A stretch of DNA of 64,000 bases, from the sequence record PP359570. The stretch is one strand, 5' to 3'. A program made the position numbers and the translations under genes. Source of the DNA: Escherichia phage ALITA. Positions 815 to 59,789 of the stretch are shown piece by piece; the stretch's first letter is position 1; each line of letters starts with the position of its first letter. The notes below the pieces were generated by a model that did no database searches, was not told the DNA's origin, and worked only from the letters and a program-made list of their open reading frames with translations.

Positions 815-1792
815 TTAAGCAACAGTCTGGTCTTCTTTTTCAGGGAAGATTAAACTTGCAATAACACCCAACCCAAGAGTACCTAACACAATATACATAC
901 TGATCGTCGGATCAATGTGTGCTGGCAGGAAACTCACTTTTGCGTGCAGAGTTTCTGCAAACGGATGATACATCAGTTTTACACCCACAAACACCAGGAC
1001 TACGATAACTGCTTTCTCCAGATGAACCAAATACTTCAGTGCAACACTAAGAACAAAGAACAGAGCACGTAAACCTAAGATTGCACAAAGCATCGAAGAG
1101 AACACCAGCAGAGGTTCTTGTGTCACTGCAATTACTGCTGGAACAGAGTCTACTGCAAAGATTACGTCTACCATTTCCATTACAAACACACAAACCAGAG
1201 CCGGAGTTGCTACACGAACACCATTTTTGATTGTGAAGAACTTCTCACCATCCATCTGATCAGATACAGGGAACAGCTTACGAACAATACGAGTAGCCCA
1301 GTGTTTAGAGTAATCAATTTCTGCATCATTATCCCCAGCGAATACCATTTTAGCCGCACAGAAAAGGATGACAGCACCGAAGAAGATATTAACATACCAG
1401 CCCAAACTCAACAAGTAAGTACCTACTGCTACAAACACACCTCGGAAGACAATTGCACCTGCAATACCCCAAAGTAGAATCTTGTGCTGCAAGTGTGTGC
1501 TTTTAATACCAAAACTTGCGAAGACTGCCACAAATACTACTAAGTTATCTACAGAAAGAGATTTCTCCAACACATAACCACTCAAGAACAAGCTCGCAAA
1601 ATCAGCACCGTGTTGGAAGTATACAAAACCATAGTAGGCTAATGATACCCCAATCCAGAAAATTGACCAGCCAATTGCAGATTTAAATGAGATCTCTTTG
1701 TTTTCTCTGTGTCCAAAGAAGTCAATACAAATCGACAAGACTAAAATACCCACTAAAACAACCACATCAATAATTGGGAAACCCAGTTGCAT
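815..1792 (-). CDS. TerC-family integral membrane protein
   Basis: 325 aa, multiple TM helices, TerC-like LEKSLSVDNLVVF motif; AGAGGAG RBS upstream of ATG. Confidence 0.75.
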   Translation of the reverse strand: MQLGFPIIDVVVLVGILVLSICIDFFGHRENKEISFKSAIGWSIFWIGVSLAYYGFVYFQHGADFASLFLSGYVLEKSLSVDNLVVFVAVFASFGIKSTHLQHKILLWGIAGAIVFRGVFVAVGTYLLSLGWYVNIFFGAVILFCAAKMVFAGDNDAEIDYSKHWATRIVRKLFPVSDQMDGEKFFTIKNGVRVATPALVCVFVMEMVDVIFAVDSVPAVIAVTQEPLLVFSSMLCAILGLRALFFVLSVALKYLVHLEKAVIVVLVFVGVKLMYHPFAETLHAKVSFLPAHIDPTISMYIVLGTLGLGVIASLIFPEKEDQTVA

Positions 1793-2132: not shown

Positions 2133-2339
2133 TTATTTGTTAGATTGAAAGATACCACGAAGTACCGCAAGAATGAACGTCACACAGACTACACTCCAAA
2201 ACGTTACAGGAACATGATGCCAGTCTAAACCGATAATGTCAATCATATAGTTGTATGCTAAAAGCAGTAGCCAACTAGGGATTAACACAATCAAGAACAC
2301 AACAATAAAACAACCTAATACTGCTAAAACACCTGCCAT
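2133..2339 (-). CDS. small membrane protein
   Basis: 68 aa with two predicted TM helices. Confidence 0.45.
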   Translation of the reverse strand: MAGVLAVLGCFIVVFLIVLIPSWLLLLAYNYMIDIIGLDWHHVPVTFWSVVCVTFILAVLRGIFQSNK

Positions 2340-2348: not shown

Positions 2349-3065
2349 TTATTTCAGTTTGTAAACAATTACATTTAAACCTTTGTTCACTAGAGTTTCT
2401 TCGATCATAAGTTTTACAATATTCCAAGAACCTCCAGCCAAACCACAACCAAGCATTGGTAAACCTACAATTTTACCGCCTGAAGATACAACATCGTCTC
2501 CCATACTATCTAACGCATTGTAGATAGCTTCATAATTCAGGTCACGCTTACCTTCCTCACGACGACTATAACCATATTGTCCATATAAATTATAAATTGT
2601 CAAATTGTTTTCTGTATATTTGGTAAACGTACCTAATTTTTTATAATCACCACGTTTAGTGGCACAATCTGCTTTAAACGCACCAGGCCACTTGCTTTTA
2701 ATTTTTGGTGCAATACCACTACCCATAGTGCAAAAACAGTTACAGCAGTGTGCTATAGCGTCTATATCGCCTCTCTCGGCTGCTGCTAAAAGATCACCGT
2801 ATACCTCAATGATACCTGCCGGATAACTTGTTACAATTTCATCTTCCCAATACATTTTCTCTACACCACCGATCAGTGCAAAGTTTTGTGTAATGCGATC
2901 ATCAATATAGTTAAGACCTGAAACATACACAGCGTATTCATCCTGTGCTGTAATACCTTGCACACGAATTCTTAAGACACCATCTTTATCTGTTGCTACA
3001 CGCCCAAAATCTTTTTCTGTAATATTGGTGATAGGATCTCCGAAAGTCATTACTTTATTAGACAT
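2349..3065 (-). CDS. macro-domain protein (TARG1/OARD1-like ADP-ribose-processing fold)
   Basis: Start moved to internal MSNKV (ATG about 3063-3065) just after the stop of the upstream gene; motif IAHCCNCFCTMGSGIAPKIKSKW resembles the AHC..(D)C.MGAGIA signature of TARG1-type macrodomains. Confidence 0.55.
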   Translation of the reverse strand: MSNKVMTFGDPITNITEKDFGRVATDKDGVLRIRVQGITAQDEYAVYVSGLNYIDDRITQNFALIGGVEKMYWEDEIVTSYPAGIIEVYGDLLAAAERGDIDAIAHCCNCFCTMGSGIAPKIKSKWPGAFKADCATKRGDYKKLGTFTKYTENNLTIYNLYGQYGYSRREEGKRDLNYEAIYNALDSMGDDVVSSGGKIVGLPMLGCGLAGGSWNIVKLMIEETLVNKGLNVIVYKLK

Positions 3066-3915
3066 AATAATCCCCTTTAACATTAGGTTTGTTGATAATG
3101 TTGCTTTCAAAAAATTGACGTAGGAAATCAAAGTTCTCTTTGTATTTTTCAATGTTATTGTAACCTTCTGCAAGGCAACCAAAGAACAGTTGTTCTACAT
3201 AATACAAAGGAAGTTGTGAAAGTGCAATTTTAAAATCAACTTCGCTTTGACTCATTAGATACTTAATAGGACGAACCAAACATTTAGCATCAGCTTCTTG
3301 CTTAATCATTTTAATAAAAGCTGCCAGATTATTGATATAGTTGAAGTTAAGTGCAGCTTCGGTGTTGGCTTCTGTACCTTCATACTTTGCAAAGTACAGG
3401 AAAAACGTATCGTTTTCAACACCTTCTTTGTCTAAAATTTCAATAAGTTTTTCTTCGTGTGTTCCTGTAATATTAACATCATCAATGAAAATCAGAGTTT
3501 TATTACCCCAGAAATCACGATTGATAGAGAAAGTGTCACCATCGATCAAAGCCTTACGATCTTCTTTGCTAAGAAATCCATAATCATTGATATAGCTCAC
3601 TTTACGATGAACGATATCCCACTCCACTGGTTTACCACCTTTGATAGAGATTAGGTAGTTGAGGTGATCTACAAAATGTTCAGATAACACTGTAGCTGCA
3701 TTTTTCACATAGTTATATGGAGATGGAATAACAACAAAACTTTCATTTACCAGTCGTTCTTCATACTTAGAAAAGAAACTTTCAGCCAGAATGCGCCCCA
3801 TTCTTTTTGCTGCCTGGTTACTACCAAACTTTAGTTTGGAATAATCTGCAATGTTAAATTTTGCTTCCTTCAGGTTAGTAAAAGTATTAGCAAAATGTTG
3901 AATTTGATTACGCAT
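3058..3915 (-). CDS. phosphoribosyltransferase (type I PRTase)-like protein
   Basis: KTLIFIDDVNITGTHEE matches the PRPP-binding loop (hydrophobic x4-DD-x-TG-T); stop abuts the macro-domain gene start. Confidence 0.45.
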   Translation of the reverse strand: MRNQIQHFANTFTNLKEAKFNIADYSKLKFGSNQAAKRMGRILAESFFSKYEERLVNESFVVIPSPYNYVKNAATVLSEHFVDHLNYLISIKGGKPVEWDIVHRKVSYINDYGFLSKEDRKALIDGDTFSINRDFWGNKTLIFIDDVNITGTHEEKLIEILDKEGVENDTFFLYFAKYEGTEANTEAALNFNYINNLAAFIKMIKQEADAKCLVRPIKYLMSQSEVDFKIALSQLPLYYVEQLFFGCLAEGYNNIEKYKENFDFLRQFFESNIINKPNVKGDYYV

Positions 3916-4564
3916 TAATAAGTTCCTCTTTTTTAAGTTTAGCCAACAAGTCTTCTGGATTAATAATATGACAGAACTTCATCCCTATGTCAACAGCTTT
4001 TCCATCATAAATCAAACTATCTCCAACGTGTAAAATCTCTTCTGGTGCGAGATCAAACGTCACCATTTCATCAAAAGAGAGTTTAAAAAACCTAGGATCT
4101 GGTTTACACAAGCAAAACTCGTCAGAAAAATGCATAAAGTCAAATGGTAATTTTGTTAAGCCAGAATATACAGCTAAGAAACTACCTGGTACAAAATTAG
4201 TATTGCTCTTAATACTCAAAGAGTAGGTTGAACTTAGCTCTTCCAACTTCTTGCAAAGTTCAGGATTCAATGTTGGAGGATGTTTTATAAACATTGCCAA
4301 ACAATCTCTTTTTAACCCATCCACTTTATCAAGATCAATGTTCAAACGAGTAGAAAGTGTTACCCAAGCATCCTTAGACGTTCCACAAATGCCTTTTTCT
4401 GCTTTTAAATCCAAGAAAGTTTTTACCTCTTTGTATACGGTAGCTGCTTCTGCCTCAGAGCAAGAGGCATACTCGGCAATAACCTTGTTGCGCTCTTCTG
4501 CATACAAAGGGTTAGCAGTAATAAGAGTATTCCATACATCAAAAGAAATATGCTTAACAGTCAT
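3908..4564 (-). CDS. HAD-superfamily hydrolase/phosphatase-like protein
   Basis: Start at MTVKH (ATG about 4562-4564, GGAGG RBS); HAD motif I-like ISFDVWNTL and motif IV-like HVGDSLIYDG; overlaps PRTase-like gene start. Confidence 0.55.
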   Translation of the reverse strand: MTVKHISFDVWNTLITANPLYAEERNKVIAEYASCSEAEAATVYKEVKTFLDLKAEKGICGTSKDAWVTLSTRLNIDLDKVDGLKRDCLAMFIKHPPTLNPELCKKLEELSSTYSLSIKSNTNFVPGSFLAVYSGLTKLPFDFMHFSDEFCLCKPDPRFFKLSFDEMVTFDLAPEEILHVGDSLIYDGKAVDIGMKFCHIINPEDLLAKLKKEELINA

Positions 4565-4566: not shown

Positions 4567-4722
4567 TTAATCCTCCGTCCAAAAGAATATCATCTGCTTA
4601 ATTTTATTGATTTCTTGATGTAGTAACTTTCCAGCATGTGATTGATCTTTAATATTGACAGCAAGAATTTCAAGTTCCGTTAGTTTTTCTTGGATAGCTT
4701 TATATTCATCATCTGTAAGCAT
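4567..4722 (-). CDS. hypothetical small protein (51 aa)
   Basis: Unlisted short ORF MLTDDEYKAIQEK... filling the gap, RBS-like AAAGGGGA upstream; coordinates approximate. Confidence 0.3.
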   Translation of the reverse strand: MLTDDEYKAIQEKLTELEILAVNIKDQSHAGKLLHQEINKIKQMIFFWTED

Positions 4723-4733: not shown

Positions 4734-4925
4734 TTAGAATGGTAATCTTTGTATGTCACTTATCCCCACACCAAGAAGTCTAGCAATATCCTTATCTAAA
4801 AGCAACTCTTTTTGTTCTAAAATGTTAATCAGATCTCCTAATACTTCTTTAATGTCACGATCATTTTTAGCAACGTGACCACCTGCTGTATCAACTTTAT
4901 CTTTAAAAACAAAGTAATGATCCAT
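4734..4925 (-). CDS. hypothetical protein
   Basis: Track ORF 4734..4937; start moved to MDHYF which has a GGAGGG RBS. Confidence 0.4.
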   Translation of the reverse strand: MDHYFVFKDKVDTAGGHVAKNDRDIKEVLGDLINILEQKELLLDKDIARLLGVGISDIQRLPF

Positions 4926-4942
4926 AATACCCTCCATATAAA

Positions 4943-4971: not shown

Positions 4972-6132
4972 TTAGTAAGAACGACCACCAAACACATACT
5001 CTGTGTAGTTTTTACGTTCTTTGTTTTTAATAACAACTTCAATGTTGTTGCCTTTATCATCGGTGAACACAAAGTGATAACCGTCACCACCCATTGTACG
5101 GATGTGTTTTTCATCATACGTCAGCAAGATACGGTCTACACCCCAGTAGTAGTCACCTTCTTCATCTTTGTCTTCTACTGTAACGACCCCTTCCATTTCA
5201 GGAAGATGCTCTTCTCCTAGCTTATGGTCTACAGCTACAACATAACGATTACCGCTAAACAAACCCTGTGCTGTCATACCGTCAATATCGGTATCTGCCG
5301 AAACATCTCCTGTACGATCTACACCGTTAACTTTCAGGAGTTTAACTTCTTTTGCAGCATAGCGGTGTTCAGTAATACTGATACCCATTAATGCAAGTGC
5401 ATCAGAGAATTTGTCATTAGGGTAACGGTTAAGTTCTTCTACTAGTGACTGAACAATATCAAAGTTCAAGTCCACGGAAAGATTATAAAGCGTTTCAAAA
5501 TCTGGTAAAAAGGCTTTGTTCTCCAGATTTTTAGCCAGATAGTCATCCATAGTAGCTTTAGGTAGTTTCTTATAGCTAAAACTGTAGAAAATACGGCTAG
5601 GACGATTACGCAAAAATTCTGATACATAACCATCATTTTTAGTCAATACAAACAGCTTGTCATAGCCACCTACACCATCCAGCAGAGTAAGCAAACCATC
5701 CTGTGCATCTTTTTCAGCATACAGTTTATCAAATTCATCGATCATAATCATCACAGGTTGTGTGATTTTAGACATAAAATTGATAAAGCCTTCGCCATTA
5801 AAAGCACTACCGATAGAAATAGTAGGAATACCCATTTCACGAAGAGCAGAAGACAGCATTTTAGCTTGCAAAGTTTTACCACTACCCTTCGTACCCTCAA
5901 GGAGAACACCTGTGTTTTTACCTTTGCGGCTAAGGAACGTCTTGATAATACGTTCTGATTTATCATCAGTATCACCGTATGTTACTGAAGGGACTTCCAT
6001 ATCGTTTTTAGGATACAGGAAGAACTCACCACTTTGAGTAACACCTACACCAAAAGTTCCTGCTGGAATTTCTTCAATATCTGTACCAGATTTCTGACGC
6101 AGGAAGATTTGATTGCCGAATACTGTAAACAT
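4972..6132 (-). CDS. P-loop NTPase (AAA-like ATPase), paralog A
   Basis: Walker A GTKGSGKT, Walker B-like MIMIDEFDK; N-terminal ~250 aa paralogous to 21127..22254. Confidence 0.6.
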   Translation of the reverse strand: MFTVFGNQIFLRQKSGTDIEEIPAGTFGVGVTQSGEFFLYPKNDMEVPSVTYGDTDDKSERIIKTFLSRKGKNTGVLLEGTKGSGKTLQAKMLSSALREMGIPTISIGSAFNGEGFINFMSKITQPVMIMIDEFDKLYAEKDAQDGLLTLLDGVGGYDKLFVLTKNDGYVSEFLRNRPSRIFYSFSYKKLPKATMDDYLAKNLENKAFLPDFETLYNLSVDLNFDIVQSLVEELNRYPNDKFSDALALMGISITEHRYAAKEVKLLKVNGVDRTGDVSADTDIDGMTAQGLFSGNRYVVAVDHKLGEEHLPEMEGVVTVEDKDEEGDYYWGVDRILLTYDEKHIRTMGGDGYHFVFTDDKGNNIEVVIKNKERKNYTEYVFGGRSY

Positions 6133-9476: not shown

Positions 9477-9911
9477 TTAGTTTAAAATTTCTTTTGCAAT
9501 GGTAGAAGCAAGTTTTCCATCATATTGATTCGGATACTCTGCTTTAAGGTGTTTCATCATATCTGGCATTTTCTTGCCTGTCAAGGCAAATTCTTCAGCA
9601 ATAGCTCGAAGATCATCTTCAGATAGCATTTCTGGCAAATATTTTTCCAGAGTGGTGATATCACGCATAGCTCGCTCACACTTGCTAATGGAGGCATTAA
9701 CTTTCTTAAGCGAGTCTAGTTCCTCTTTAGCGTGTGCAATACCAATCTTAACAATGTTAATCATAATATCGTCTTCTGATTTGTTTAGATTTGCCTTTTG
9801 AGTACGAGCAAGGTCAAACTCACCAATAATATTAGTTAACAAAGCAAAAGCACCTTTATCGGTTGTACGTGCTAAGATACGATCTGCTTTCATTTGTGTC
9901 ACAATAGACAT
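9477..9911 (-). CDS. GatB/YqeY-domain protein
   Basis: 144 aa, all-helical; C-terminal ...DGKLASTIAKEIL resembles the GatB/YqeY C-terminal signature. Confidence 0.5.
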   Translation of the reverse strand: MSIVTQMKADRILARTTDKGAFALLTNIIGEFDLARTQKANLNKSEDDIMINIVKIGIAHAKEELDSLKKVNASISKCERAMRDITTLEKYLPEMLSEDDLRAIAEEFALTGKKMPDMMKHLKAEYPNQYDGKLASTIAKEILN

Positions 9912-9923
9912 TCTATTCTCCTC

Positions 9924-10496
9924 TTATTTGCTAATGCTTTGAATCTTATTTACAACACGGTTTATTGCCAGTGAAGCCCTAGGCTCCGCAATACCTGTTG
10001 CATAGATATAAGGATGACCTCTTGGAGACTCCCTCATACCGAATGAACCTAATTCTAAACCATATTTATCCTCTACGTCAACCCCAATATTAGTGGGTAC
10101 TAAATATGTTTTAACTCCATAATAAGTAGAGAAGAAACAGCGCATAGCGTTAGCATACTCTTCAATTGTAGCATCAGGGTAGAACTCAATCAACTCCAAT
10201 TTCAAGAAAATATTGAAATGAGTGTCATCTAAATTTTCTTCTGTACGGTAACATGGTGTTAGTGCCATATAAGGATTACCTGCTGCAAATTCAAAACCAT
10301 CCTTCTCCATTTGCAGGAAAGATTGTTCTGCACTGGCTACATAGTATTTACCGTTAGGATGCCCTAATGGGCGATCCTCTTTATTTTCTGGTAGTGTGTA
10401 CGCCAGTATATCAGCATCCACGAGATATGGAACTTCCAACATTTGTGCAAACCGACCATAGTAATCAATAGCTTGAGCTATTACTTCAACATTCAT
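9924..10496 (-). CDS. minimal class II (IIb, AspRS/AsnRS/LysRS-type) aminoacyl-tRNA-synthetase-like catalytic core
   Basis: Motif-2-like TPCYRTEENLDDTHFNIFLKLELIEFY (compare c-FRxE...H-PEFT-lE-Y), preceding YYVASAEQSFLQ (compare fyaLpqSPQlfKQ) and EVPYL motif-1-like; only 190 aa, no anticodon-binding domain. Confidence 0.45.
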   Translation of the reverse strand: MNVEVIAQAIDYYGRFAQMLEVPYLVDADILAYTLPENKEDRPLGHPNGKYYVASAEQSFLQMEKDGFEFAAGNPYMALTPCYRTEENLDDTHFNIFLKLELIEFYPDATIEEYANAMRCFFSTYYGVKTYLVPTNIGVDVEDKYGLELGSFGMRESPRGHPYIYATGIAEPRASLAINRVVNKIQSISK

Positions 10497-10754: not shown

Positions 10755-13529
10755 TTAGTTTACCAGTTTATTTATATCTGGTAAAAGATTTATTTCACCT
10801 AAGAAATCACCTTCACCTTCCTCTAGCCAACTCTCATATGCTTGTGCATGATTATAGTTACCATCAAAAGAATCTGCAACAAATTTTTCTACAGTTTTTC
10901 GAGATGTGCCAGCACCAAATACACCAAGTTTAATACCATTGATCGGTAAAGTGGTGCTTGTGGGTACTTTCTCTGTTGCAACACGGTTGATATCTATAAT
11001 CTCCTGTACGGTTGTGTTCCATTGTAAGCATTTAACACAACGGGTATGCGCTACATACAGTAGGTTTCGCTCTGCCTCTTCCAGTCCTACCCATTCACCA
11101 GTCTTTTTATCATAGTTGGAAGGAAAATCATTAGCAACAATAACCTGATCCCACTCCAAACCTTTAGACTTGTGTGCTGTAGTCAGTGTGACTTTTGCTG
11201 TAGGAGAATTTCTATGCGTTCTAAGTGTATGTGCTATAGTGTTTGCCTTACCAGAAACTACGATGTTTAACAAGCGTTTAGCATCTGGATCAGCCTCTGC
11301 ACACTCAACAAATTCATCCCAGTCTGCGTAAGGTAATACAGTTTCATGTTTTACTTTCTCAATATCTCCTCTCCGAAGAGCATTAACACTATCTACCATA
11401 GAGATAAAATCCCTGGTATCTACGTTAATAATAATTTCTTCCCCATCTGCAATACGATCCATTGCCTCCATAAGCAAGGTTAAATTCTTGCGAAAGATGA
11501 TAGTGTAAGGTTTTGTATAGTCTACAACATCTGATTTGTAGCTACCTACTACAGTATCAAAGCCTTTACCAACCAAAGGATGACGCAAAGGTTCTTTATC
11601 GCTTAAAATCATATTGGCAATGTTTGCCACTTTGGGGCCAAAACGGAAGCAAGCAGTTAATGGAAGTTCTGCCCCATACTTAGCTGTTTCAATCATCATA
11701 TTAGAGCTACCTCTAAATTGATAAATGCAGTTGTGGCTAAGAATTTCATTGCCAAAGAAGTTAGCAGTATCCTCTACTTCAATATCATAATAGATACCCT
11801 CACTATCTACAATGTCCACAATCTCTTCTGCCGTTACAGTATCACCATCTTTTACCAACACAGACATGCCTTTAAACAAACCCGCTGCCGGAATTAAGTT
11901 ATATTTGGCACTGTTCACAGAGGACATGCATTCTTTTAAAGATGCAAACGGAACTATTTCAAGGATCTTTTGTGCAAAACTCAATGCTTCACGATAAGAA
12001 TTGAAATATTTACGTACACGGTAACGACCTTCCAATTTAGCAGCACTTACGCTTACACCTGCTTTAATCAGTGAAGAATAGATCGGCATTTCACTTTCTG
12101 TCCACTCAAAACTAACTTGTGTTCCTTTACAACCTTGTGCTCGCAAAGTCACTGTTAGCATTTTTCTTTCATCTACTGCACAATTGATGCTGTGCCAGTG
12201 TGGATAAGCAAAATGATAATCTTTATCCTCTAAAAGTTTAAAACCATTTTGTCCGAATTGTTCAAAGATGTTATTGATCCTTTCTTGATTAATGCCGCGT
12301 GAACTTGCTTCAAATACACAAGTAGGAATGCCATATTGTAAACTGTAAGCCATTTCTTTTTCCATAGCAGCTTCACGGTTTTCAACAATATCCAACACCC
12401 ATAATTTCTGTGCTTTTTCAGAACGTGTACGTTGCCCCAGTTTAGAAAAACCTTCTTTATCATCGAATTTGTTAGTGATCCCTACTCGGAAACCTAAATC
12501 TTTCCTCCACATTAGGTATACCACCATCTGATCATCTTTCAGAACATAGGATGAAGCCCAAATACGATGGTTATGTGTCATATCTAAAGTTTTACCTGTG
12601 GCAGTAATAATATTCCTACCTTTTGTACGTGTAGATAAAGTCTTATTTGTTACTTTTCTAAATGTAACTTTACCATTAGAATAAGACTCTACCTTATCAC
12701 CGATTTGCAGGTCTTTCATTGTAACCTGACCATTCTCGGTATTAAGTACCGTGTTTTCCGACACACATTGGAATTCATCGCCCACTACCACAATTTGTTT
12801 TGCAGATTTAGCATTTCGCAGAATAGACAAGAATGCAGGGTTAACATCCTGGAATTCATCACCAAAAATAATATCATAACCAAGATCAGCACCAGACAAT
12901 TCAAACAATTTTACATAGGTGTCATGCGTCATTAAAGTATCTGTGTTAGGATCGATGCGCTCTCGCCACAATTGTTTTGCATACTTAACTACTTCTGTAA
13001 TTAGTTTGTGTTCGTTAATACCTTTTCTTTTAATATCTGCAAGATGTACACTAGGAAAATGTTTACGGCTGATAAAAGGATCATCCGAAAATTCAAACTT
13101 ACCTACGGTTTGCTTGATCATTAAACCGATCATAGCACGAGTTAAAAGTGTTTTACCTCGTTTATCAATAAGATTATTAATCTTAAATTTCTTTGCTATC
13201 TCACTACCTGTACCTGCAACGTTAACATACTGTCCTTCTGGTCGTGACAGTTTTGCACGTAAACGATGATCCAGGAATTGATAGCAAATAGAATGCAATG
13301 TACGGCATTCTACATTTAGTGGCATCTTACGTCGTGCTTCTTCTGCCATGCTTTTATTGAAAGCTAAGTAAAGAATGCGATCTTCTGTACTGTTAGCCAG
13401 CAAATAAAGTGTTGACGTTTTGCCTGATCCAGATTTAGCTTGGATAGTTAAAAAGCGATGGTCTGGAAAAGCCTCCTTAATAGCTGTTTGCTCTTCTGTT
13501 GGAGTGAAGCTCAACTCTTTCTTAGCCAT
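10755..13529 (-). CDS. UvrD/PcrA-like SF1 DNA helicase, interrupted by an in-frame intein
   Basis: Walker A AKSGSGKTST, motif II GDEFQD; motif III split as VVVGDEFQ / CIYQFRGSS by a 346-aa insertion; start set at MAKKE with GAGAGG RBS. Confidence 0.8.
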   Translation of the reverse strand: MAKKELSFTPTEEQTAIKEAFPDHRFLTIQAKSGSGKTSTLYLLANSTEDRILYLAFNKSMAEEARRKMPLNVECRTLHSICYQFLDHRLRAKLSRPEGQYVNVAGTGSEIAKKFKINNLIDKRGKTLLTRAMIGLMIKQTVGKFEFSDDPFISRKHFPSVHLADIKRKGINEHKLITEVVKYAKQLWRERIDPNTDTLMTHDTYVKLFELSGADLGYDIIFGDEFQDVNPAFLSILRNAKSAKQIVVVGDEFQCVSENTVLNTENGQVTMKDLQIGDKVESYSNGKVTFRKVTNKTLSTRTKGRNIITATGKTLDMTHNHRIWASSYVLKDDQMVVYLMWRKDLGFRVGITNKFDDKEGFSKLGQRTRSEKAQKLWVLDIVENREAAMEKEMAYSLQYGIPTCVFEASSRGINQERINNIFEQFGQNGFKLLEDKDYHFAYPHWHSINCAVDERKMLTVTLRAQGCKGTQVSFEWTESEMPIYSSLIKAGVSVSAAKLEGRYRVRKYFNSYREALSFAQKILEIVPFASLKECMSSVNSAKYNLIPAAGLFKGMSVLVKDGDTVTAEEIVDIVDSEGIYYDIEVEDTANFFGNEILSHNCIYQFRGSSNMMIETAKYGAELPLTACFRFGPKVANIANMILSDKEPLRHPLVGKGFDTVVGSYKSDVVDYTKPYTIIFRKNLTLLMEAMDRIADGEEIIINVDTRDFISMVDSVNALRRGDIEKVKHETVLPYADWDEFVECAEADPDAKRLLNIVVSGKANTIAHTLRTHRNSPTAKVTLTTAHKSKGLEWDQVIVANDFPSNYDKKTGEWVGLEEAERNLLYVAHTRCVKCLQWNTTVQEIIDINRVATEKVPTSTTLPINGIKLGVFGAGTSRKTVEKFVADSFDGNYNHAQAYESWLEEGEGDFLGEINLLPDINKLVN
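11730..12767 (-). mobile_element. intein (346 aa) within helicase motif III
   Basis: Begins with Cys (CVSENTVL...), ends ...SHN followed by Cys; block-B-like TxxH (THNH); excision would restore contiguous GDEFQ-CIYQFRGS; size suggests an embedded homing-endonuclease domain. Confidence 0.7.
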
Positions 13530-13530
13530 T

Positions 13531-14007
13531 TCAACCTCTCTTAATTTGTTTAACAAGCATAGGAACAAAGTCTCGTTTTAAAATTTGTTCAATAATATGA
13601 TCAGGTAGCTGTTGGAAATTATAATTAAAAGCTACTGTCTCACCTTTAGGCGTTTCTACCCGCACATATAACATGTTACGAAGTTTATCAACTTGTGCTG
13701 TATATTCTAAACCATGTAATTGATGTAATGCAAACATCAAATCATCAGTTTCAGTTTGGAATCTATCCCTTCCCTGCATCAAGGACAAGGAAAAAGGTAG
13801 ATTTTCCCTAAGAGCCACCTTCTTAGGAACTAGTGAAGGAAAATACTCACCAATAACTTCCTGTGTAAGCTGGATACACTCTTTTTCAAGTTGGTTTTGT
13901 TCCTTAAGTTCACAAACACTTTTTTGTAAAGTGTTAACCTCTTTTTGCAAAGCTGCTAGTTGAGCACTTAACTTTCTTTTTTGATTACGACCAAAACGTT
14001 TAGACAT
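13531..14007 (-). CDS. hypothetical protein
   Basis: 158-aa ORF, coiled-coil-like N-terminus. Confidence 0.5.
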   Translation of the reverse strand: MSKRFGRNQKRKLSAQLAALQKEVNTLQKSVCELKEQNQLEKECIQLTQEVIGEYFPSLVPKKVALRENLPFSLSLMQGRDRFQTETDDLMFALHQLHGLEYTAQVDKLRNMLYVRVETPKGETVAFNYNFQQLPDHIIEQILKRDFVPMLVKQIKRG

Positions 14008-21126: not shown

Positions 21127-22254
21127 ATGAAATACACGATTTATGGTGATATTGTAAGTGTAAATAAAGATATGGGCGTGGAATCTAACTATCTTCCACC
21201 TGGATTCTATACTGTTAGTCGTGATCCCCTTGGCAATTATTTTTTAAGCCGTGGTAATCTAACAGGTGTACCGGATGTTTTGTATGGTGAAACAGAAAAA
21301 CGAGCAAATCACGTTATCCGTACATTCCATCGCCGGAGTGCACAAGGTAAAAACACAGGCTTGCTTCTGACAGGAACTAAGGGCAGTGGTAAAACTATGT
21401 TAGCCAAACTCATTAGTCGTGACCTTGTAGAAGAAGGTATTCCAACTATTATGGTTACTCAAGCCTACAGCGATGCTAATTTCATTGAACTTATTAGCAA
21501 GATCACCGACAAAGCAGTGATTATTTTTGACGAGTTTGATAAAGTATATGAGAAGAAACAAGATCAAGAAGCACTTCTCACTTTGTTAGATGGTACTGGG
21601 AGTGGTAATAAACTGTTTATTCTAACTAAAAACAGTGGTTTTATCTCTGAATTCTTTTTAAATCGTCCTAGTCGTGTGTTTTATAATTTTAATTATGATA
21701 AAATCTCACTAGAAACTATGATTGACTATTTAGATAAAAACTTGGATAACAAAGCACACTTTGATAATTTCCAAAGGCTTTGGGATGTAAGTTTAGAGTT
21801 GTCCTTTGATGTGATCCAAGGTATAGTAGAAGAACTTAATTTCTACCCTGATTTATCCTTTAAAGAATGCATCTCTATGATGGGCGTTTCTTTGGGTGGT
21901 GGTAATAAATGGGATATCAGCAGCGTTGTTATTAATGGAAAACTTCAGAAAGTTAGCTGGGTATCTAGTTGGCATAACTTCACACCTGCAATCTTCTTAG
22001 GTGGCTCGTGCACACTAGACGTGTACTTGTCATCTCCAAGTGATGCAGACTCTAAAGAAGCCCTTGCTAATAGCTCTTACGTGGTTTTTGATGATGAAGG
22101 CGATGCTCGAATTCCATTGAATGCGACAAAAATGAAAGCAGATCTTATTACAGGCGGTAAAATCGTTGTGTTTAGTGATGATCCAGAAGATTCTTTCCGT
22201 ATTGTTCTGGAACCAACTATCACCAATGGTGCAACTTTGGCAAGCGTGTTTTAA
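21127..22254 (+). CDS. P-loop NTPase (AAA-like ATPase), paralog B
   Basis: Walker A GTKGSGKT, Walker B VIIFDEFDK; N-terminal ~250 aa alignable to 4972..6132 product; C-terminus divergent. Confidence 0.6.
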   Translation: MKYTIYGDIVSVNKDMGVESNYLPPGFYTVSRDPLGNYFLSRGNLTGVPDVLYGETEKRANHVIRTFHRRSAQGKNTGLLLTGTKGSGKTMLAKLISRDLVEEGIPTIMVTQAYSDANFIELISKITDKAVIIFDEFDKVYEKKQDQEALLTLLDGTGSGNKLFILTKNSGFISEFFLNRPSRVFYNFNYDKISLETMIDYLDKNLDNKAHFDNFQRLWDVSLELSFDVIQGIVEELNFYPDLSFKECISMMGVSLGGGNKWDISSVVINGKLQKVSWVSSWHNFTPAIFLGGSCTLDVYLSSPSDADSKEALANSSYVVFDDEGDARIPLNATKMKADLITGGKIVVFSDDPEDSFRIVLEPTITNGATLASVF

Positions 22255-22328: not shown

Positions 22329-23735
22329 ATGCCAGCACCAAAATCATGGGAACAATATAAAGAAGAATTAACACCCCTTGCTAAAAATCACAACATTCAG
22401 ATTCTGGGTTATATTGGTGAATGGAAAGGGAGCAAGACTAAACTTAAGCTATCTTGCTCTGATCATGGGGAGTGGGAAAGTACCATAATCAATAGCTTTA
22501 AAACTAAAGGCGGTAAATGTTGCCCCGATTGCAATGGTCGTAGAAAAGTAACAGAAGAAAAGGAATGTATTTCCCTTGTTGATGTTGCTAAAGAAAGAGG
22601 GTTTACTTTTATAGGTCTTGCCGAAGAGTGGCGAGGTGTGCTAACAAAAATCCGCATAGTTTGCCCTAAACATGGAGAGTGGAACACCACGACCATTAGT
22701 GGTTTTAGGAAGGGACGTGGTTGTCCGGCATGTGCAAGTAATAAGCCGTTAACATGGGAAACAGAATTACCGATCTTGGAAGAGATAGCACAGAAGAAGG
22801 GGTATCAGGTGTTAGGGTACGTGGGAGAATGGAAAGGGATTGATACAAAACTTGATTTGTTGTGTCACTGTGGTAACAGATGGGATACTACAAGTATTAA
22901 CAGTTTTAAACATGATCATGGTTGTCCTTTATGTGGGTATGAGAATACAAGGAAGGCACAAACAATACCCGACGATCAACATATTGCAGATTTCTTTTCT
23001 ACAGGGAAATTTAAGGAAGGCACTATCTTTACCAATACAGGGAAACGTAGTTGTAGTAAAAACAAGGACATTATCTGGATGATCGAATGTCCTGTTTGCT
23101 CTCATGATGAGTATGTGCAAGCAGGTGTATGTGATGGTAAGTTTTATATGACACGTAGCGATCTTAAGGCTGGACACTTGCCCTGCCGCTGTGCAACTAA
23201 CTCTCATTATACAGAAAATCAGATTACCTACAGGGTAAAAAAGGAAGTAGAAGGGAGAGGGTATGTCTGGGTAGGTTGGATCGGTAAACCGTCTATAAGA
23301 CTGGGTAATTTTAAATATCTTTGTCTTGTTCATGGGGAACAAATTGGTAGTGCTTATCGCTTACTATATCAGGATAATGGTTGTCCACAATGTGCAGGTC
23401 ATAGTCAGCAGCAATTGTATGTTAATGTTGTTAAAGATAATGGTATTATAGTTGCTCTTAAGTTTGGTATATCTAAAGATAGTGCTAGGAGATTAAACAT
23501 TCAAAATAGGCGTAATATGTTTTTTATGGAGCGTATTTGTTTATATGATTTTAGTACAGTGAAGCAGTGTAAGGCTGCTGAAAGAGCTATAAAGAAAAAA
23601 TTAAAAACTGGTATCTTAACAGCAAGAGAGTTGAAAGATGGTTATACAGAAACAGTAAGTGTTTCTGATTTGGAAAATCTTCAAAAAATTATTACACAAT
23701 ATGGTGGCAAATTAGTATACAGTAAGGAGGTGTAA
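22329..23735 (+). CDS. tandem zinc-ribbon repeat protein with C-terminal GIY-YIG-like (T5orf172-type) domain
   Basis: About 5 repeats of GY.GEWKG..TKL...C..HGEW.TT.I..FK...GCP.C; C-terminal LYVNVV...ALKFGIS...RR...E resembles GIY / YIG / Arg / Glu arrangement. Confidence 0.45.
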   Translation: MPAPKSWEQYKEELTPLAKNHNIQILGYIGEWKGSKTKLKLSCSDHGEWESTIINSFKTKGGKCCPDCNGRRKVTEEKECISLVDVAKERGFTFIGLAEEWRGVLTKIRIVCPKHGEWNTTTISGFRKGRGCPACASNKPLTWETELPILEEIAQKKGYQVLGYVGEWKGIDTKLDLLCHCGNRWDTTSINSFKHDHGCPLCGYENTRKAQTIPDDQHIADFFSTGKFKEGTIFTNTGKRSCSKNKDIIWMIECPVCSHDEYVQAGVCDGKFYMTRSDLKAGHLPCRCATNSHYTENQITYRVKKEVEGRGYVWVGWIGKPSIRLGNFKYLCLVHGEQIGSAYRLLYQDNGCPQCAGHSQQQLYVNVVKDNGIIVALKFGISKDSARRLNIQNRRNMFFMERICLYDFSTVKQCKAAERAIKKKLKTGILTARELKDGYTETVSVSDLENLQKIITQYGGKLVYSKEV

Positions 23736-47997: not shown

Positions 47998-48810
47998 TTA
48001 CTTAGTCAAATGATCTTCTATCATTTTTATGAAAGCAGGATTGCTAAAAGCCTCTGCTGCCTTTTCTCTATAAACAAAGACTCCTCTATCTTCGTAAAGA
48101 AGAGTTTCTTCGTAATTAATTCCTGGGTTAACAACAATCATTTTTGTACCCATATTAAGTGCAGGGAATAATTCCCAATTAAAATTGATAACTTGGTTTG
48201 AACATCCTACTACAACAACCAAATCTTGCATGGTCAAAGTATCAAACAAGTGAGCCATATCTGCATACAAAGGTGCAGCCTCACCAAAAAATACAACATT
48301 AGGCTTCACCCAGTTATAATCATCTATGTTTATACTATTGTAACCAATGTCTACCAGTGTTTTGTAATCTCCAGGATGCATACGGTAAACTACTTCAGGA
48401 AGATACCCGTGCACGTGAATAACAGAATCCCTGTCCACACCTGCTCGCTCTAATAGATCATCAACGTTTGTTGTCAAGTTTACTACTTGGTTAGGATATT
48501 CCTTAAACCACTTTGCTATTTGAATATGTGCAGCATTAGGTTGTACATCTTTAAGCTCAACACGTCTTTTGTTATAAAATTCGTGTGTTTTGGCATACAA
48601 ATCCATACCGTTCTCGTCTACACCACCGACCACTGGAAGATCTGGAGATGTTCTCACACGATAACCTGCTTGGAAAGCTCCAATATCGCAGACCTCTTCT
48701 AAATCATATTCTTCCCACAAGGCACGACCACTATCTGTGTCTGTTCGGAACGTTCGAATCCCACTGTCTGCACTTAAACCTGCGCCACTAACAAAAATTA
48801 CTCTTCGCAT
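47998..48810 (-). CDS. Sir2 (sirtuin)-family protein, NAD-dependent deacylase or ADP-ribosyltransferase-like
   Basis: FVSGAGLSADSGIRTFR (compare GAGIS.eSGIptFR), NVDDLLERAG...HVHG, KPNVVFFGE; no four-Cys Zn module. Confidence 0.7.
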   Translation of the reverse strand: MRRVIFVSGAGLSADSGIRTFRTDTDSGRALWEEYDLEEVCDIGAFQAGYRVRTSPDLPVVGGVDENGMDLYAKTHEFYNKRRVELKDVQPNAAHIQIAKWFKEYPNQVVNLTTNVDDLLERAGVDRDSVIHVHGYLPEVVYRMHPGDYKTLVDIGYNSINIDDYNWVKPNVVFFGEAAPLYADMAHLFDTLTMQDLVVVVGCSNQVINFNWELFPALNMGTKMIVVNPGINYEETLLYEDRGVFVYREKAAEAFSNPAFIKMIEDHLTK

Positions 48811-50138: not shown

Positions 50139-51128
50139 CTATTCCTCCATACATTTAAGAATATGTGCAATGACAGGTATAGTCCAACCGTTACCTAACA
50201 TCTTATATGCTTGTGTGTTACTACTCACTTTAAAGTAGTCATCTGGCACACCTTGCAAACGGCAACACTCTTTAACGGTTAACTTTCTATAATGTACGCC
50301 TTCACTCAATTTTTCAAAAGCATCTAAATATCTTCCAGGTGGAATGTAAGCTAATAGTACGTCTTTCGGCACAGTCGTGAGGCAACGAGTTTTTTCACTG
50401 TCCTGAACTTCCAAACAATGTACCAAACGATCAGTTTTAGATGTACTACGTTTGCCATTTTCATTAATTCTACGCCCATATATTGCTGCTGGATAAAAAA
50501 CCAGTTGTCTGCGACTCTTTTCAAAATACTGTTCTATATTACCACCTTTGGCATAATTTGCATCTATGCAATAAGCCTTATCTCTGTCTACAATACTATC
50601 ATCTTCAATGATATCTTGCAACACTTCATTGGTAATATCCCAGGGTTTTATTTCCCAGTTGCACCAGTATAAACGTTGTCTATTCTGTGCCGTGAAATCT
50701 GCGGAGTTAATGAATACGGGATCAACACCTAAGTAACTTGTGATCACGTTTTCCCACTCCACTTTCATCTTAACGTTTTCAAGCATGAACTTAACATTAG
50801 GGTTAAACTTTTTAATATGTTCAAGAATCTCAACATATTCGAAGAATAGCTTAGATCGCGGATCTTGAAAGTTCAAACCCTTACCAGAAGAAGAGAAGCC
50901 TTGACACGGACTACCACCTAACAAAAGATCAATTTCTCCCCACGGGATATCCCATTCTCTCCATTTTGTAACATCACCTAACTGAATAATATCTGGAAAA
51001 TTTGCTTGGCTTTCAGCTATGGCGAATTTGTCTAATTCTGAAGCATAATATGTATCTACGTCAATACCTGCACTTTTTAGCGCAAGCATTCCTCCTGACA
51101 TGCCATCAAAAAGACTTAAAACTTTCAT
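50139..51128 (-). CDS. DNA (cytosine-5)-methyltransferase
   Basis: Motif I LSLFDGMSGG, motif IV GGSPCQGFS, motif VI ENV. Confidence 0.85.
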   Translation of the reverse strand: MKVLSLFDGMSGGMLALKSAGIDVDTYYASELDKFAIAESQANFPDIIQLGDVTKWREWDIPWGEIDLLLGGSPCQGFSSSGKGLNFQDPRSKLFFEYVEILEHIKKFNPNVKFMLENVKMKVEWENVITSYLGVDPVFINSADFTAQNRQRLYWCNWEIKPWDITNEVLQDIIEDDSIVDRDKAYCIDANYAKGGNIEQYFEKSRRQLVFYPAAIYGRRINENGKRSTSKTDRLVHCLEVQDSEKTRCLTTVPKDVLLAYIPPGRYLDAFEKLSEGVHYRKLTVKECCRLQGVPDDYFKVSSNTQAYKMLGNGWTIPVIAHILKCMEE

Positions 51129-51130
51129 TA

Positions 51131-51541
51131 TTACTTCTTCTCCTTAACACTAGCTGGTAATTCTGCCTTGAGGCAGAAGTTTAAACGGTAAGCCTCATTC
51201 TCATTTAAAAGTACAGATTCACACGATAACCAGAACAAGAGATCCTCAATACCAGGGCTGTTAAGCCAACAGTGCAGAAGAGAATGTTGTTCTATATCAA
51301 TGTAATTTAGTAACAAGGCTTGTAAGGCGTAACTAGTTCCTGTCGTTTTTGCTTTTTCAAGGATGATATTGTGTTTACTAACAACTTTCTTCCTAAGACC
51401 AAACCATTTATTAACAACAACAGTCTCTTCTTGTAGTTGTTTTCTTATTTTCTCACATTCTTTAACTACAATCTGCATCTTATCCACTGCTGATTGAAGT
51501 TGTTCTTTTGTTGGGTTTACAAAATAATCACTATAATACAT
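51131..51541 (-). CDS. hypothetical protein
   Basis: 136-aa ORF. Confidence 0.5.
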   Translation of the reverse strand: MYYSDYFVNPTKEQLQSAVDKMQIVVKECEKIRKQLQEETVVVNKWFGLRKKVVSKHNIILEKAKTTGTSYALQALLLNYIDIEQHSLLHCWLNSPGIEDLLFWLSCESVLLNENEAYRLNFCLKAELPASVKEKK

Positions 51542-51594
51542 GCTAAACTCCTCTTCTGTTTTTCTGTAGTTTATTCGAAAAAACTGGTGTTGTC

Positions 51595-51622
51595 AACAAA
51601 AAACCCGCCGAAGCGGGTTTAT
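51595..51622 (-). terminator. rho-independent terminator (AAACCCGC-TTCG-GCGGGTTT plus T7 on minus strand)
   Basis: Same hairpin family as 22268 and 47227, inverted. Confidence 0.65.
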
Positions 51623-51623
51623 A

Positions 51624-51881
51624 TTATTCTACAGGAACTTCTTCACCAAGAGAAACTTCTAAACGGAATGCTTTACTTTCAATACATTCACTACCTTTTA
51701 AGAAATCGAATTGCACTATAGACTGACTTAATAGAATAGATAGAATCACATCGCAATCTTCACTAGGGGCTAGATGTTTGTATTCTTCCTTCAAGGTAAC
51801 ATCATAAAAACATAAGTCCCCTACTCCTAGTTCATCCCATCCTTCCCACGCATCTACAAAGTTAAACTCTAAACCTTTCAT
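51624..51881 (-). CDS. hypothetical protein
   Basis: 85-aa ORF. Confidence 0.45.
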   Translation of the reverse strand: MKGLEFNFVDAWEGWDELGVGDLCFYDVTLKEEYKHLAPSEDCDVILSILLSQSIVQFDFLKGSECIESKAFRLEVSLGEEVPVE

Positions 51882-52402
51882 ACAATCTCCTCGTAATTGT
51901 TATTGTGTTTTACTGTCTCAACATACAATAAAGATTCCATCTGTAATACATTACCAGAAATAATAAACCCATAAGCCATTTCAGATGTGTCTATATCATA
52001 TGCCCCGTCTTCCGGTTTAGCAAAGTGTAAAACTATTTCATCTGGGTTTTCTTCATCCCATAGTTTAGAAATTTTCCGAACCAGAATGTTAGCTAAAATA
52101 GTTGACATTCGGGATAAAGCTGTATCCTCATATCTTTTAAAACCTAGCCAATAGAGGTTAAGAATTTCTACTTCTTCTTGTGTTAAGTTTTTGTCTAAAG
52201 TAATCAGATCTGTAGAGCACGGCGTTTTTGTTGAACCTACTGTTACAAAACCTGGAGTGTTATGAAAAACAATCTTAACTTTATCACGTATAAAGTTTAA
52301 ACCTTGTGCCTCAACTATATATTGTATTGTAGGTACAATATCGTTTGTTACATCAATAAAACTATCTTTAATGACGCTTATATTATTTCTGGACAATACC
52401 AT
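51878..52402 (-). CDS. hypothetical protein
   Basis: 174-aa ORF. Confidence 0.5.
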   Translation of the reverse strand: MVLSRNNISVIKDSFIDVTNDIVPTIQYIVEAQGLNFIRDKVKIVFHNTPGFVTVGSTKTPCSTDLITLDKNLTQEEVEILNLYWLGFKRYEDTALSRMSTILANILVRKISKLWDEENPDEIVLHFAKPEDGAYDIDTSEMAYGFIISGNVLQMESLLYVETVKHNNNYEEIV

Positions 52403-52961
52403 TCTCCTCTAAGATAGGCTTAATAAATTCGAAAATTTGTTTTTTACTTTTACCTCGAATATTAAAACAAGGAACATTAAACTTTTTAGCCAACATCCAA
52501 GCTGTTCTTGTACCACCTAAAGGATCTCCATTTTTATCTGTATTTGCACAAGCCAAAAGAAAACAAGATGGTTTTGGATTCTCAAGATCTCTTCCAAGAA
52601 CTTGGTGGATATTTCTTTGATGTAATTTTTTAGCACCTTGAGATAATCTGTCCCAAGCTGGATGCAATTCTTTTGCATATTGCAAGGTTAAAGCATAGTT
52701 TACACTATCTGGTCTGTCAAGAACAATAACCTCTCCCTCTATTTCATTACCTTTAAACGAGAGCCAAGGGATGTATATTTCTTTCTTTGTATTGTTCCCA
52801 CTATCATATACCCCGCATTCAAATGCGGAATCTGCACCTTCTGCTTTACCAGATCGCAAAATGAACCATGTAGATAGCCATTTTGCAACAGATACCATAG
52901 TATCCCATTCTTCGTCTGTAATATCTCTGCTACCAACACCTGTGTAGAATAAATCGCTCAT
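52383..52961 (-). CDS. Rossmann-like SLOG/DprA-type domain protein (tentative)
   Basis: Start at MSDLFY (GGAGAAAACC RBS); YTGVGSRD...SGKAEGADSA resembles the DprA/SLOG nucleotide-binding core. Confidence 0.35.
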   Translation of the reverse strand: MSDLFYTGVGSRDITDEEWDTMVSVAKWLSTWFILRSGKAEGADSAFECGVYDSGNNTKKEIYIPWLSFKGNEIEGEVIVLDRPDSVNYALTLQYAKELHPAWDRLSQGAKKLHQRNIHQVLGRDLENPKPSCFLLACANTDKNGDPLGGTRTAWMLAKKFNVPCFNIRGKSKKQIFEFIKPILEENGIVQK

Positions 52962-52971
52962 GGTTTTCTCC

Positions 52972-53292
52972 TTAACAAGTAATATTGGGAGTAACAATTG
53001 GATTAACAATTGGAGTGATAGGGTACGTAAACCAAGGGCTTCCAATTTCCCAAGGATTATAAGGTCTACGAGGATCAAATGGAGGAGTTACTTCAGGCTT
53101 TTTCCAAATCTCCGCTAGTTGTTTCTTCCATTTATCCCTTGCTGTCTCATTATCTTCATCCAACTGTTCATCATTATCTTTTATTTCTGGTTTTGGAAAT
53201 AAAAGCTCTTTGACTAACTCAACATCTTCCGTCTCAATAGTAGTTTCTTTCGTAAGTTCTCCTACTGTTTCTTTAATTGTGATTTTATACAT
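52972..53292 (-). CDS. hypothetical protein
   Basis: 106-aa ORF, Pro-rich C-terminus. Confidence 0.45.
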   Translation of the reverse strand: MYKITIKETVGELTKETTIETEDVELVKELLFPKPEIKDNDEQLDEDNETARDKWKKQLAEIWKKPEVTPPFDPRRPYNPWEIGSPWFTYPITPIVNPIVTPNITC

Positions 53293-54361: not shown

Positions 54362-54371
54362 CCCCTTCTCC

Positions 54372-54944: not shown

Positions 54945-54955
54945 ATTTAACTCCT

Positions 54956-55159: not shown

Positions 55160-55168
55160 GTTTCCTCC

Positions 55169-55831: not shown

Positions 55832-55888
55832 AATACCCTCCTGTTCTGTTACAGGAAGTATGCACTACCTTAACGTTAAAGTCAACAG

Positions 55889-57263: not shown

Positions 57264-57304
57264 ATCTCCTCCTAATAAACCCCCTCAAGGGGGTTTGTGT
57301 TAGA

Positions 57305-58449: not shown

Positions 58450-58485
58450 TTAACCTCCATAACAGGCATCCTTGCCTTGTAATTA

Positions 58486-59238: not shown

Positions 59239-59251
59239 GTTTGCACTCCTT

Positions 59252-59777: not shown

Positions 59778-59789
59778 GTTTTCCTTATA

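Follow-up and report, generated by a model that had tools for sequence, protein, structure and literature searches.

Three consecutive genes on the minus strand of a 64,000-nucleotide stretch of Escherichia phage ALITA DNA (sequence record PP359570; the whole stretch is called the window below) encode a HAD-superfamily hydrolase, a phosphoribosyltransferase (PRTase)-like protein and a macrodomain protein, which raises the question of whether these three enzymes serve a single pathway. An earlier note, made from the sequence alone, had proposed that they do, with ADP-ribose bound or released by the macrodomain being converted onward by the PRTase-fold enzyme and the phosphatase. Our analysis points instead to a composite locus, which probably holds two functional units that came to lie side by side through common descent within one phage group and do not belong to one pathway. 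One is a member of a computationally described module, made up of the HAD and PRTase genes and often found with genes of the Ter system, and the other, the macrodomain gene, belongs to an anti-defence family that is common among phages.

Over its first 6.2 kb the window is 100% identical to Escherichia phage inny (MN850601.1), while its identity to phi92 and some 50 other Justusliebigvirus genomes is about 98%; the window phage is a phi92-like Justusliebigvirus. The HAD gene (4564-3908, 218 amino acids (aa)), the PRTase-like gene (3915-3058, 285 aa) and the macrodomain gene (3065-2349) are the counterparts of phi92 gp187, gp186 and gp185, respectively, with identities of about 98%. Co-orientation and overlapping start and stop codons, as noticed earlier, are confirmed: each junction is an 8-nucleotide ATG...TAA overlap, ATTAATGCGTAA at 3915-3908 between the HAD and PRTase genes and ATGTCTAA at 3065-3058 between the PRTase and macrodomain genes. 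Because all three have full-length PHROG matches (1e-118 to phrog_14393 for HAD, 1e-163 for PRTase and 7e-65 for the macrodomain) and are nearly identical to phi92 genes, they are real genes and not chance open reading frames (ORFs). They do not form a closed three-gene operon, since they lie within a longer co-oriented string that runs from a terminator-like hairpin at 4965-4944 through two small ORFs, the three genes and two further small ORFs to a terC gene at 1792-815. The hairpin, a 9-bp stem followed by a T-run on the minus strand, sits 3′ of an AAA ATPase gene, coincides with a terminator annotated at the matching place in phage Paula, and is the upstream limit of this gene string.

The macrodomain itself occupies residues ~86-238 of the gp185 homologue (2810-2349), following an N-terminal extension (3065-2811). 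It matches Pfam Macro (2e-7; 31.3 bits against a cut-off of 22) and the DarG models of PADLOC and NCBIfam (~1e-13), and carries the AHCCNC..MGSGIA motif. Its best sequence matches in the PDB are SCO6735 (5e3b, 3e-15), BT1257 and TARG1, and Foldseek comparison of its model gives TMt values of 0.88 for TARG1, 0.85 for BT1257, 0.82 for SCO6735 and 0.81 for DarG. The ADP-ribose-binding loops MGSGIA and GCGLAGG are conserved in the phage family. Moreover, all of 25 phage homologues keep N109 and Q163, which correspond, in a pairwise HMMER alignment to 5e3b, to Asn27 and Gln85 of SCO6735, residues that are essential in this enzyme, a remover of thymidine-linked ADP-ribose from DNA (PMC9411070). The Lys84/Asp125 dyad of TARG1 is absent, the corresponding residues being Gln (Q163) and Ala (A210), and SCO6735 also lacks such a dyad (PMC9411070). 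The previous assignment to a TARG1-type macrodomain thus holds for the class, on PDB and Foldseek evidence, but not for TARG1 proper, and by its sequence features we place the protein in the ALC1-like class (TARG1/DarG/SCO6735) and in its SCO6735/BT1257 subtype. With SCO6735 and BT1257 it shares the Asn27 and Gln85 equivalents, the GCGLAGG loop and the missing Lys/Asp dyad, whereas it differs in having a Cys at the Val25 equivalent, an N-terminal extension and a phage rather than a cellular source. In GenBank phage records the gene is usually labelled ‘phosphatase’.

Members of this class offer a clear precedent for function, as TARG1, DarG and SCO6735 all remove thymidine-linked ADP-ribose from DNA (PMC9411070). 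A phage precedent is provided by T4 Tk.4, to which the window protein is 30% identical over 139 aa (BLASTP, E 9e-18), and tblastn with the window protein also matches the tk.4 loci of T4-like phages. Knockout of Tk.4 sensitised T4 to DarTG2, and the protein was named AdfM (bioRxiv 10.1101/2025.11.20.689424). The two proteins have in common the motifs HxCNC..MGSG, YxQ and G(C/A)G..G.W, and both are phage-encoded without a cognate toxin; indeed, no ADP-ribosyltransferase gene or adjacent darT was found in the neighbourhood of the window macrodomain gene. Given the activity of the TARG1/DarG/SCO6735 class and the homology to Tk.4 with its DarTG2 phenotype, the macrodomain probably removes thymidine-linked ADP-ribose from DNA and so defeats a DarT toxin. 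Its resemblance to DarG, the antitoxin of DarTG2, lies in a similar macrodomain with the same likely substrate. Unlike DarG, the window protein scores 48.9 bits against an NCBIfam equivalog cut-off of 250, matching profile positions 4-147 of 338, has Gln in place of the catalytic Lys80, and lacks the C-terminal DarT-binding domain.

A further difference from Tk.4 is architectural. Tk.4 (155 aa) and most homologues of the window protein are stand-alone macrodomains of 146-195 aa, whereas the window protein adds an N-terminal region of ~85 aa (the earlier estimate of ~100 aa was too long), and at such low identity the substrate preference of the two could differ. An alternative ATG at 3083 would lengthen the protein to 244 aa. 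The extension (residues 1-85) is predicted, with low confidence (pLDDT <50), to be beta-rich, and it is lineage-specific: among 151 homologues it is carried only by P0121 and P0122, from the phi92 clade and a relative known from a metagenome. A related phage (locus L029) has a separate 188-aa ORF (9505-10071) whose N-terminus is homologous to the extension (BLASTP 29% over 108 aa, E 1e-5). Pfam gave no match for the extension or for this ORF, and a suspected likeness of the C-terminus of the ORF to MazG was discarded. As the L029 ORF stands just upstream of a short macrodomain gene, the window-type protein probably arose by gene fusion, to judge from these alignments. On the other side of the macrodomain gene, directly 3′ of it, lies a gene for a small, hydrophobic, predicted membrane protein of 68 aa (phi92 gp184; 2133-2339, minus strand; phrog_16065), apparently with two transmembrane helices. 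This gene has the same position in the window and in loci L029, L030 and L032, a ‘conserved membrane protein’ is similarly placed by the macrodomain gene of phage GAP31, and the two genes may be a conserved pair.

An alternative function for the macrodomain is housekeeping for the phage’s own NAD-consuming reactions, with O-acyl-ADP-ribose, ADP-ribose-1''-phosphate or protein-linked ADP-ribose produced during Sir2 activity or RNA repair as substrates. Such a role finds some encouragement in the window, which encodes a Sir2-family protein (47998-48810, minus strand; Pfam SIR2 1.3e-22), in the Poa1p structures retrieved by Foldseek (TMt ~0.72) and the Poa1p-like ‘phosphatase’ label of many annotations, and in GAP31, where the macrodomain gene is 1.2 kb from RNA ligase 2. 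Phage macrodomains have also been argued to target mainly soluble ADP-ribose derivatives, and rV5-type sirtuins have been tied to RNA repair (PMC9503650), while SCO6735 and TARG1 act on protein ADP-ribose as well (PMC9411070). We nevertheless regard this role as unlikely. By sequence as well as by structure the protein is closest to TARG1, BT1257, DarG and SCO6735, and not to Poa1p; TARG1, DarG and SCO6735, once tested, all proved to strip thymidine-linked ADP-ribose from DNA; the only phage homologue tested genetically, T4 Tk.4, gave an anti-DarTG2 phenotype; and the Sir2 gene is 45 kb away from, and unlinked to, the macrodomain gene.

The protein encoded by the middle gene matches Pfam PF15610 (PRTase_3, ‘PRTase ComF-like’) over profile positions 14-264 of 264 (1.3e-41; 143.2 bits against a cut-off of 28.7). 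Its AlphaFold2 model has a pLDDT of 90, and the top Foldseek matches of the model are HGPRT, ComF (7p0h) and PyrR, each with a probability of 1.0. On the basis of the Pfam match and these structural matches, the protein is predicted to be a type I PRTase that is extended by a helical region at its C-terminus (approximately residues 185-275), in agreement with what had been read from its phosphoribosyl pyrophosphate (PRPP)-binding loop, LIFIDDVNITGTHE. Across 22 homologues, the loop residues D145, D146, T150, G151, H153 and E154 never vary, and at least 90% of these proteins have T152. The same homologues (44-81% identity) define 57 invariant columns, which include most of the two signatures DDVxITGTHE and IPSPYNxxxNA. 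A PDB sequence search returned only a chance match to a deubiquitinase (E 0.09), and no characterised member of PRTase_3 was encountered in the PDB or the literature searched. The gene is annotated inconsistently in near-identical phages, as orotate phosphoribosyltransferase, Zot-like toxin, hypothetical protein or phosphoribosyltransferase.

The earlier note had held that assignment to a ComF-like competence family would undo the PRTase call. The call survives, because PRTase_3 is a PRTase family in its own right, its Pfam name notwithstanding. ComFC is expected to bear an N-terminal four-Cys zinc finger, and residues 1-200 of the window protein, where that finger would be, contain no Cys. 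The likeness to ComFC (H. pylori ComF, PDB 7P0H) consists of the type I PRTase fold and a PRPP-type loop, with a Foldseek TMq of 0.40. In contrast to ComFC, the window protein has neither the Cys-rich finger nor a comFA or comF operon context, its neighbours being HAD, macrodomain and Ter genes, and it has an extra C-terminal helical domain and a constant HAD partner.

That partner gives a borderline match to Pfam Hydrolase (1e-5; 26.3 bits against a cut-off of 26.4). The HAD assignment made earlier is nonetheless borne out by PDB 2om6 (6e-8), NCBIfam HAD-IA models, the phrog_14393 match and intact motifs. In an alignment of ~38 homologues the kept motifs are FDVWNT (motif I), SNT (motif II), KP (motif III) and GDSLIYD, of the GDxxxxD form (motif IV). 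In canonical HAD phosphatases the Asp two residues after the nucleophile (Asp+2) is the general acid/base. Motif I here reads D-V-W-N-T (D-x-W-x-T in the family), such that the nucleophile Asp is intact and Trp replaces Asp+2. The replacement is found in almost all of the ~38 homologues, one of which has Tyr, and in the proteins in which HAD and PRTase_3 are fused. Thus, the HAD partner of PRTase_3 lacks the Asp at nucleophile+2 that marks canonical HAD enzymes, which suggests that the chemistry at the ‘phosphatase’ step of the Ter biosynthetic module may be non-canonical.

The association between these two proteins extends far beyond this phage. PRTase_3 loci were collected from encoding contigs, from a set with one genome per species (21 loci), from IMG/VR (16 loci) and from GenBank phages, and their ORFs were scanned with profiles built from the window and phi92 proteins. 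Of the 42 loci examined, which span phages, Rhizobiaceae (Rhizobium/Ensifer), Bacteroidales, a Peribacteria metagenome-assembled genome and Pedococcus, 39 have a HAD gene immediately upstream of PRTase_3. When 1.84 billion representatives were searched with a profile, 842 PRTase_3 clusters were recovered; the best 150 of these 842 representatives include at least nine HAD–PRTase_3 fusions in the gene order of the window plus one PRTase_3–HAD–PRTase_3 protein (representatives P0260, P0279, P0300, P0302, P0311, P0338, P0349, P0356, P0375 and P0255), and Pfam confirms two of these fusions. No fusion of PRTase_3 to a macrodomain or a Ter domain occurs among the same 150. HAD and PRTase_3 are an obligate pair that in most other lineages comes without a macrodomain gene. 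PRTase_3 is also found in double and triple tandems of up to 1,153 aa. In Rhizobiaceae the neighbourhood of the pair comprises HipA, OmpW, ClpP-like and trehalose genes, and gives no functional clue. A ClpP-like serine protease (~230 aa) is encoded within 2-4 kb of the pair in four Ensifer/Sinorhizobium loci (L011, L012, L017 and L018) and in phage loci L033 and L034, with the gene immediately downstream of the pair in L017 (Pfam CLP_protease 1e-20); all six loci are devoid of Ter genes.

The recurrent company of the pair is the Ter system, a context absent from the earlier note. In the window, ~1 kb downstream, a TerC/Alx-family integral membrane protein (phi92 gp182; 815-1792, minus strand) is encoded by the first gene of a Ter cluster, with matches to Pfam TerC (1.4e-38) and NCBIfam TIGR03718 (322 bits against a cut-off of 246). 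The cluster continues in phi92, just past window position 1, with TelA (gp178), a vWA-TerF-like protein (gp173) and TerD (gp172). When neighbouring genes were clustered without bias, TerC, TerD, vWA-TerF and TelA were the only families to recur with the pair across lineages. Two bacterial loci lie in Ter islands, one (L026) with TelA, TerD, TerC, vWA-TerF, HAD and two PRTase_3 genes and the other (L022) with three TerD genes, TerY, PP2C, a kinase, HAD and PRTase_3. Furthermore, PRTase_3 is present in 156 and TerD in 143 of 50,697 phage records, with nearly equal breakdowns by organism. A role in DNA hypermodification, raised by nearby glycosyltransferase and dTDP-sugar genes, was rejected, as there is no linkage in other lineages.

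These observations connect the pair to an existing prediction. Anantharaman, Iyer and Aravind reportedly treated PRTase_3 in 2012 (Mol Biosyst 8:3142), according to secondary summaries. Ter biosynthetic modules are described as having two or five enzymes, always including a PRTase and a HAD, with a pyrimidine-derived ribonucleoside as the predicted product (PMC11994780, summarising Anantharaman, Iyer and Aravind 2012), and their presence in a jumbo phage ‘and certain other related smaller tailed phages’ was later pointed out by the same group (PMC7824862, 2021). On account of the adjacency and fusions of HAD and PRTase_3, their co-distribution with Ter and the TerC/TelA/vWA-TerF/TerD neighbourhood, the pair appears to be the Ter ‘biosynthetic module’ of two enzymes that these authors predicted in 2012. 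The correspondence covers the Pfam family (143 bits), the HAD-then-PRTase order and the TerC/TelA/vWA-TerF-like/TerD surroundings, and bacterial homologues of the pair reside in canonical Ter islands. The version described here differs in its carrier, which is not a bacterium or a plasmid but a virulent myovirus of E. coli (147 kb), in having no TerB, ATP-grasp or TIM-barrel lyase, and in the insertion of a macrodomain gene between the pair and terC. The combination of genes had been thought undescribed, which stands except for its PRTase and HAD members, described computationally with Ter in 2012 and in phages in 2021. In phage records from the BASEL collection the three genes already bear the labels phosphoribosyltransferase, macrodomain and HAD-like, and the BASEL paper does not discuss them (PMC8594841).

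A different precedent for ribose-phosphate chemistry in an anti-defence setting is phage NAD+ reconstitution by NARP1 and NARP2, reportedly described by Osterman et al. in 2024. In profile searches none of the three window proteins matches Nampt/NadV, Nmnat or PRPP synthetase; in addition, PRTase_3 is a type I rather than a type II PRTase, and its genomic partner is Ter and not NAD salvage.

Another explanation for the pair dispenses with a Ter-linked metabolite and views it as a nucleotide-centred counter-defence or auxiliary metabolic pair, which might deplete PRPP or a base of the host, eliminate one of the host’s nucleotide signals by reverse PRTase action followed by hydrolysis of the product, or make an antimetabolite against competitors. 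The Trp at Asp+2, which argues against a plain 5′-nucleotidase, fits this explanation, as do the pairs without nearby Ter genes in XaC1, RHph_TM2_3B, the CcrColossus locus, L005, L033-L038, L041-L042 and Rhizobiaceae; in Rhizobium phage RHph_TM2_3B the pair is followed by a gene annotated as NMN adenylyltransferase/Nudix. However, PRTase_3 and TerD are almost co-extensive across phage records, Ter genes are the only recurrent neighbours, and bacterial copies occur within canonical Ter islands. Models of the PADLOC defence library likewise returned no match to HAD, PRTase_3, TerC, TerD, vWA-TerF or TelA, and a catalogued defence system is therefore unsupported. Overall, we consider a purely nucleotide-centred role quite improbable.

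Whether the macrodomain belongs to the same unit as the pair can be judged from the distribution of the genes. By tblastn the macrodomain family is present in 2,972 of the 50,697 phage records, which makes it ~19 times more widespread than PRTase_3, and it stands beside the pair only in phages of the phi92/phAPEC8 (Stephanstirmvirinae) type. Even there the arrangement varies, as one or two ORFs separate the PRTase_3 and macrodomain genes in L029 and L030. Thus, when gene-neighbourhood conservation is examined as the earlier note had advised, the triple does recur, but within this phage group alone and sometimes with intervening ORFs. No nearby macrodomain gene was found in the 17 other phage loci (14 plus XaC1, RHph_TM2_3B and CcrColossus), except for L031, where it is 6.3 kb away, and none was seen in the neighbourhood of the 20 bacterial PRTase_3 loci. 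Conversely, Seunavirus GAP31 has macrodomain and small membrane-protein genes in the syntenic slot between the AAA ATPase and endolysin genes, a slot that is without HAD, PRTase_3 or Ter genes. Because ~40% of medium-sized phages carry a macrodomain (PMC9503650), finding one next to any given gene pair is unremarkable, and the same survey of NAD–ADP-ribose systems in viruses by Aravind makes no mention of a link between macrodomains and PRTases (PMC9503650).

The model of one ADP-ribose processing or salvage pathway, directed against ADP-ribosylating toxins or NAD depletion, fares poorly in light of these data. The start/stop overlaps at both junctions do suggest co-translation, the three genes are adjacent or nearly so across Justusliebigvirus, Phapecoctavirus and related Klebsiella phages, and all three families handle ribose-phosphate-type ligands. 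Yet type I PRTases use PRPP and not ADP-ribose, and the three-gene unit has no Nudix, PRPP synthetase or Nampt-type gene. Outside this phage group the pair is without the macrodomain gene, its fusions are commonly to HAD and never to a macrodomain among the 150 best PRTase_3 representatives, and the far more widespread macrodomain is kept without the pair in GAP31. Coupling through ADP-ribose is therefore unsupported by locus distribution, by fusions and by GAP31, and we judge this model very unlikely. Just as unlikely is a single small-molecule circuit of the three genes and the Ter cluster, in which a ribosylated metabolite made by the non-canonical HAD and PRTase_3 would gate the TerC/TelA/TerD membrane complex and the macrodomain, with its acquired N-terminal domain, would hydrolyse or reset the ribosyl conjugate instead of, or besides, reversing DarT damage.

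For the favoured arrangement of two separate units we infer the following roles. PRTase_3 would use PRPP to ribosylate a base-like nucleophile, yielding a ribosyl-5′-phosphate, and the HAD enzyme would process that product or its precursor. Classically this would be removal of the 5′-phosphate to give a nucleoside-like metabolite, and given the Trp at Asp+2 the step need not be simple 5′-dephosphorylation. The metabolite would act with a membrane-associated complex of the phage TerC, TelA, vWA-TerF and TerD proteins, which may alter the properties of the envelope or the handling of metals in the course of infection, or keep competing phages out. Separately, the macrodomain protein, as an ADP-ribosyl glycohydrolase resembling AdfM/Tk.4 and SCO6735, would strip DarT2-type thymidine-linked ADP-ribose off phage DNA and thereby serve as an orphan antitoxin mimic.

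Several points weigh against this arrangement. In roughly half of the phage loci, and in every Rhizobiaceae locus, there is no Ter gene within 10 kb, so the pair can work without adjacent Ter genes; HAD–PRTase_3 is a unit in its own right, with a link to Ter that is frequent but not constant. The product of the two enzymes is a prediction made in 2012, and the Trp at Asp+2 may mean that dephosphorylation to a nucleoside is the wrong step. On the macrodomain side, the protein shares 30% identity with Tk.4 and with SCO6735, which is low, the finding on AdfM comes from a preprint and concerns T4, and products of the phage Sir2 protein could be processed by the macrodomain. Finally, the 8-nucleotide overlap of the PRTase_3 and macrodomain genes and their adjacency across Justusliebigvirus and Phapecoctavirus fit co-expression, and some functional link may exist.

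The remaining members of the gene string, all on the minus strand, are small. Between the hairpin and the HAD gene are a 67-aa ORF (4734-4937), a homologue of phi92 gp189 that is annotated as a putative HTH regulator and had no significant match in a Pfam search, and a 51-aa ORF (4567-4722; phi92 gp188). An 82-aa ORF (1870-2118; phi92 gp183, phrog_17459) lies between the small membrane-protein gene and terC. In phi92, outside the span covered by the window and downstream of the Ter cluster, there are four glycosyltransferases. Five records labelled ‘Campylobacter phage’ (MG065639 among them) share ~98% identity with these coliphages, a sign of mislabelled or contaminated entries.

Elsewhere in the window, a UvrD/Rep-type helicase of 937 aa (10755-13568, minus strand) has Intein_splicing and Hint matches at residues ~267-613; its EmilieFrey orthologue is 578 aa long, and the window helicase appears to contain an intein. 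Two paralogous AAA+ ATPases are encoded on opposite strands, at 4972-6132 (minus; profile E 1e-243) and 21127-22254 (plus; 9e-143), the second being followed by a protein with four CapR-homology domains (22329-23735). A DNA/sugar-modification block at ~50139-63462 on the minus strand contains C5-cytosine and N6-adenine methyltransferases, a serine recombinase, a calcineurin-like phosphatase (53292-54038), PhoH (58486-59238) and a four-gene dTDP-rhamnose pathway. The phage group to which the window belongs has been described as exceptionally sensitive to restriction-modification systems (PMC8594841).

These results do not overturn current views; mainly, they correct the unsupported idea of a three-enzyme pathway. 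The macrodomain adds another probable orphan anti-DarT2 factor, as judged from its homologues. For the pair, the conserved replacement of Asp+2 by Trp and the HAD–PRTase_3 fusions offer biochemistry a concrete starting point. Widespread in distribution, the Ter system has been tied to phage, colicin and tellurite resistance, and a signal molecule has been proposed for it. Coliphages of the phi92 and phAPEC8 types carry a compact Ter set of HAD, PRTase_3, TerC, TelA, vWA-TerF and TerD. Being amenable to genetics, and in part available from the BASEL collection, these phages are convenient for finding both the product of the pair and the benefit that the Ter system brings to a lytic phage.

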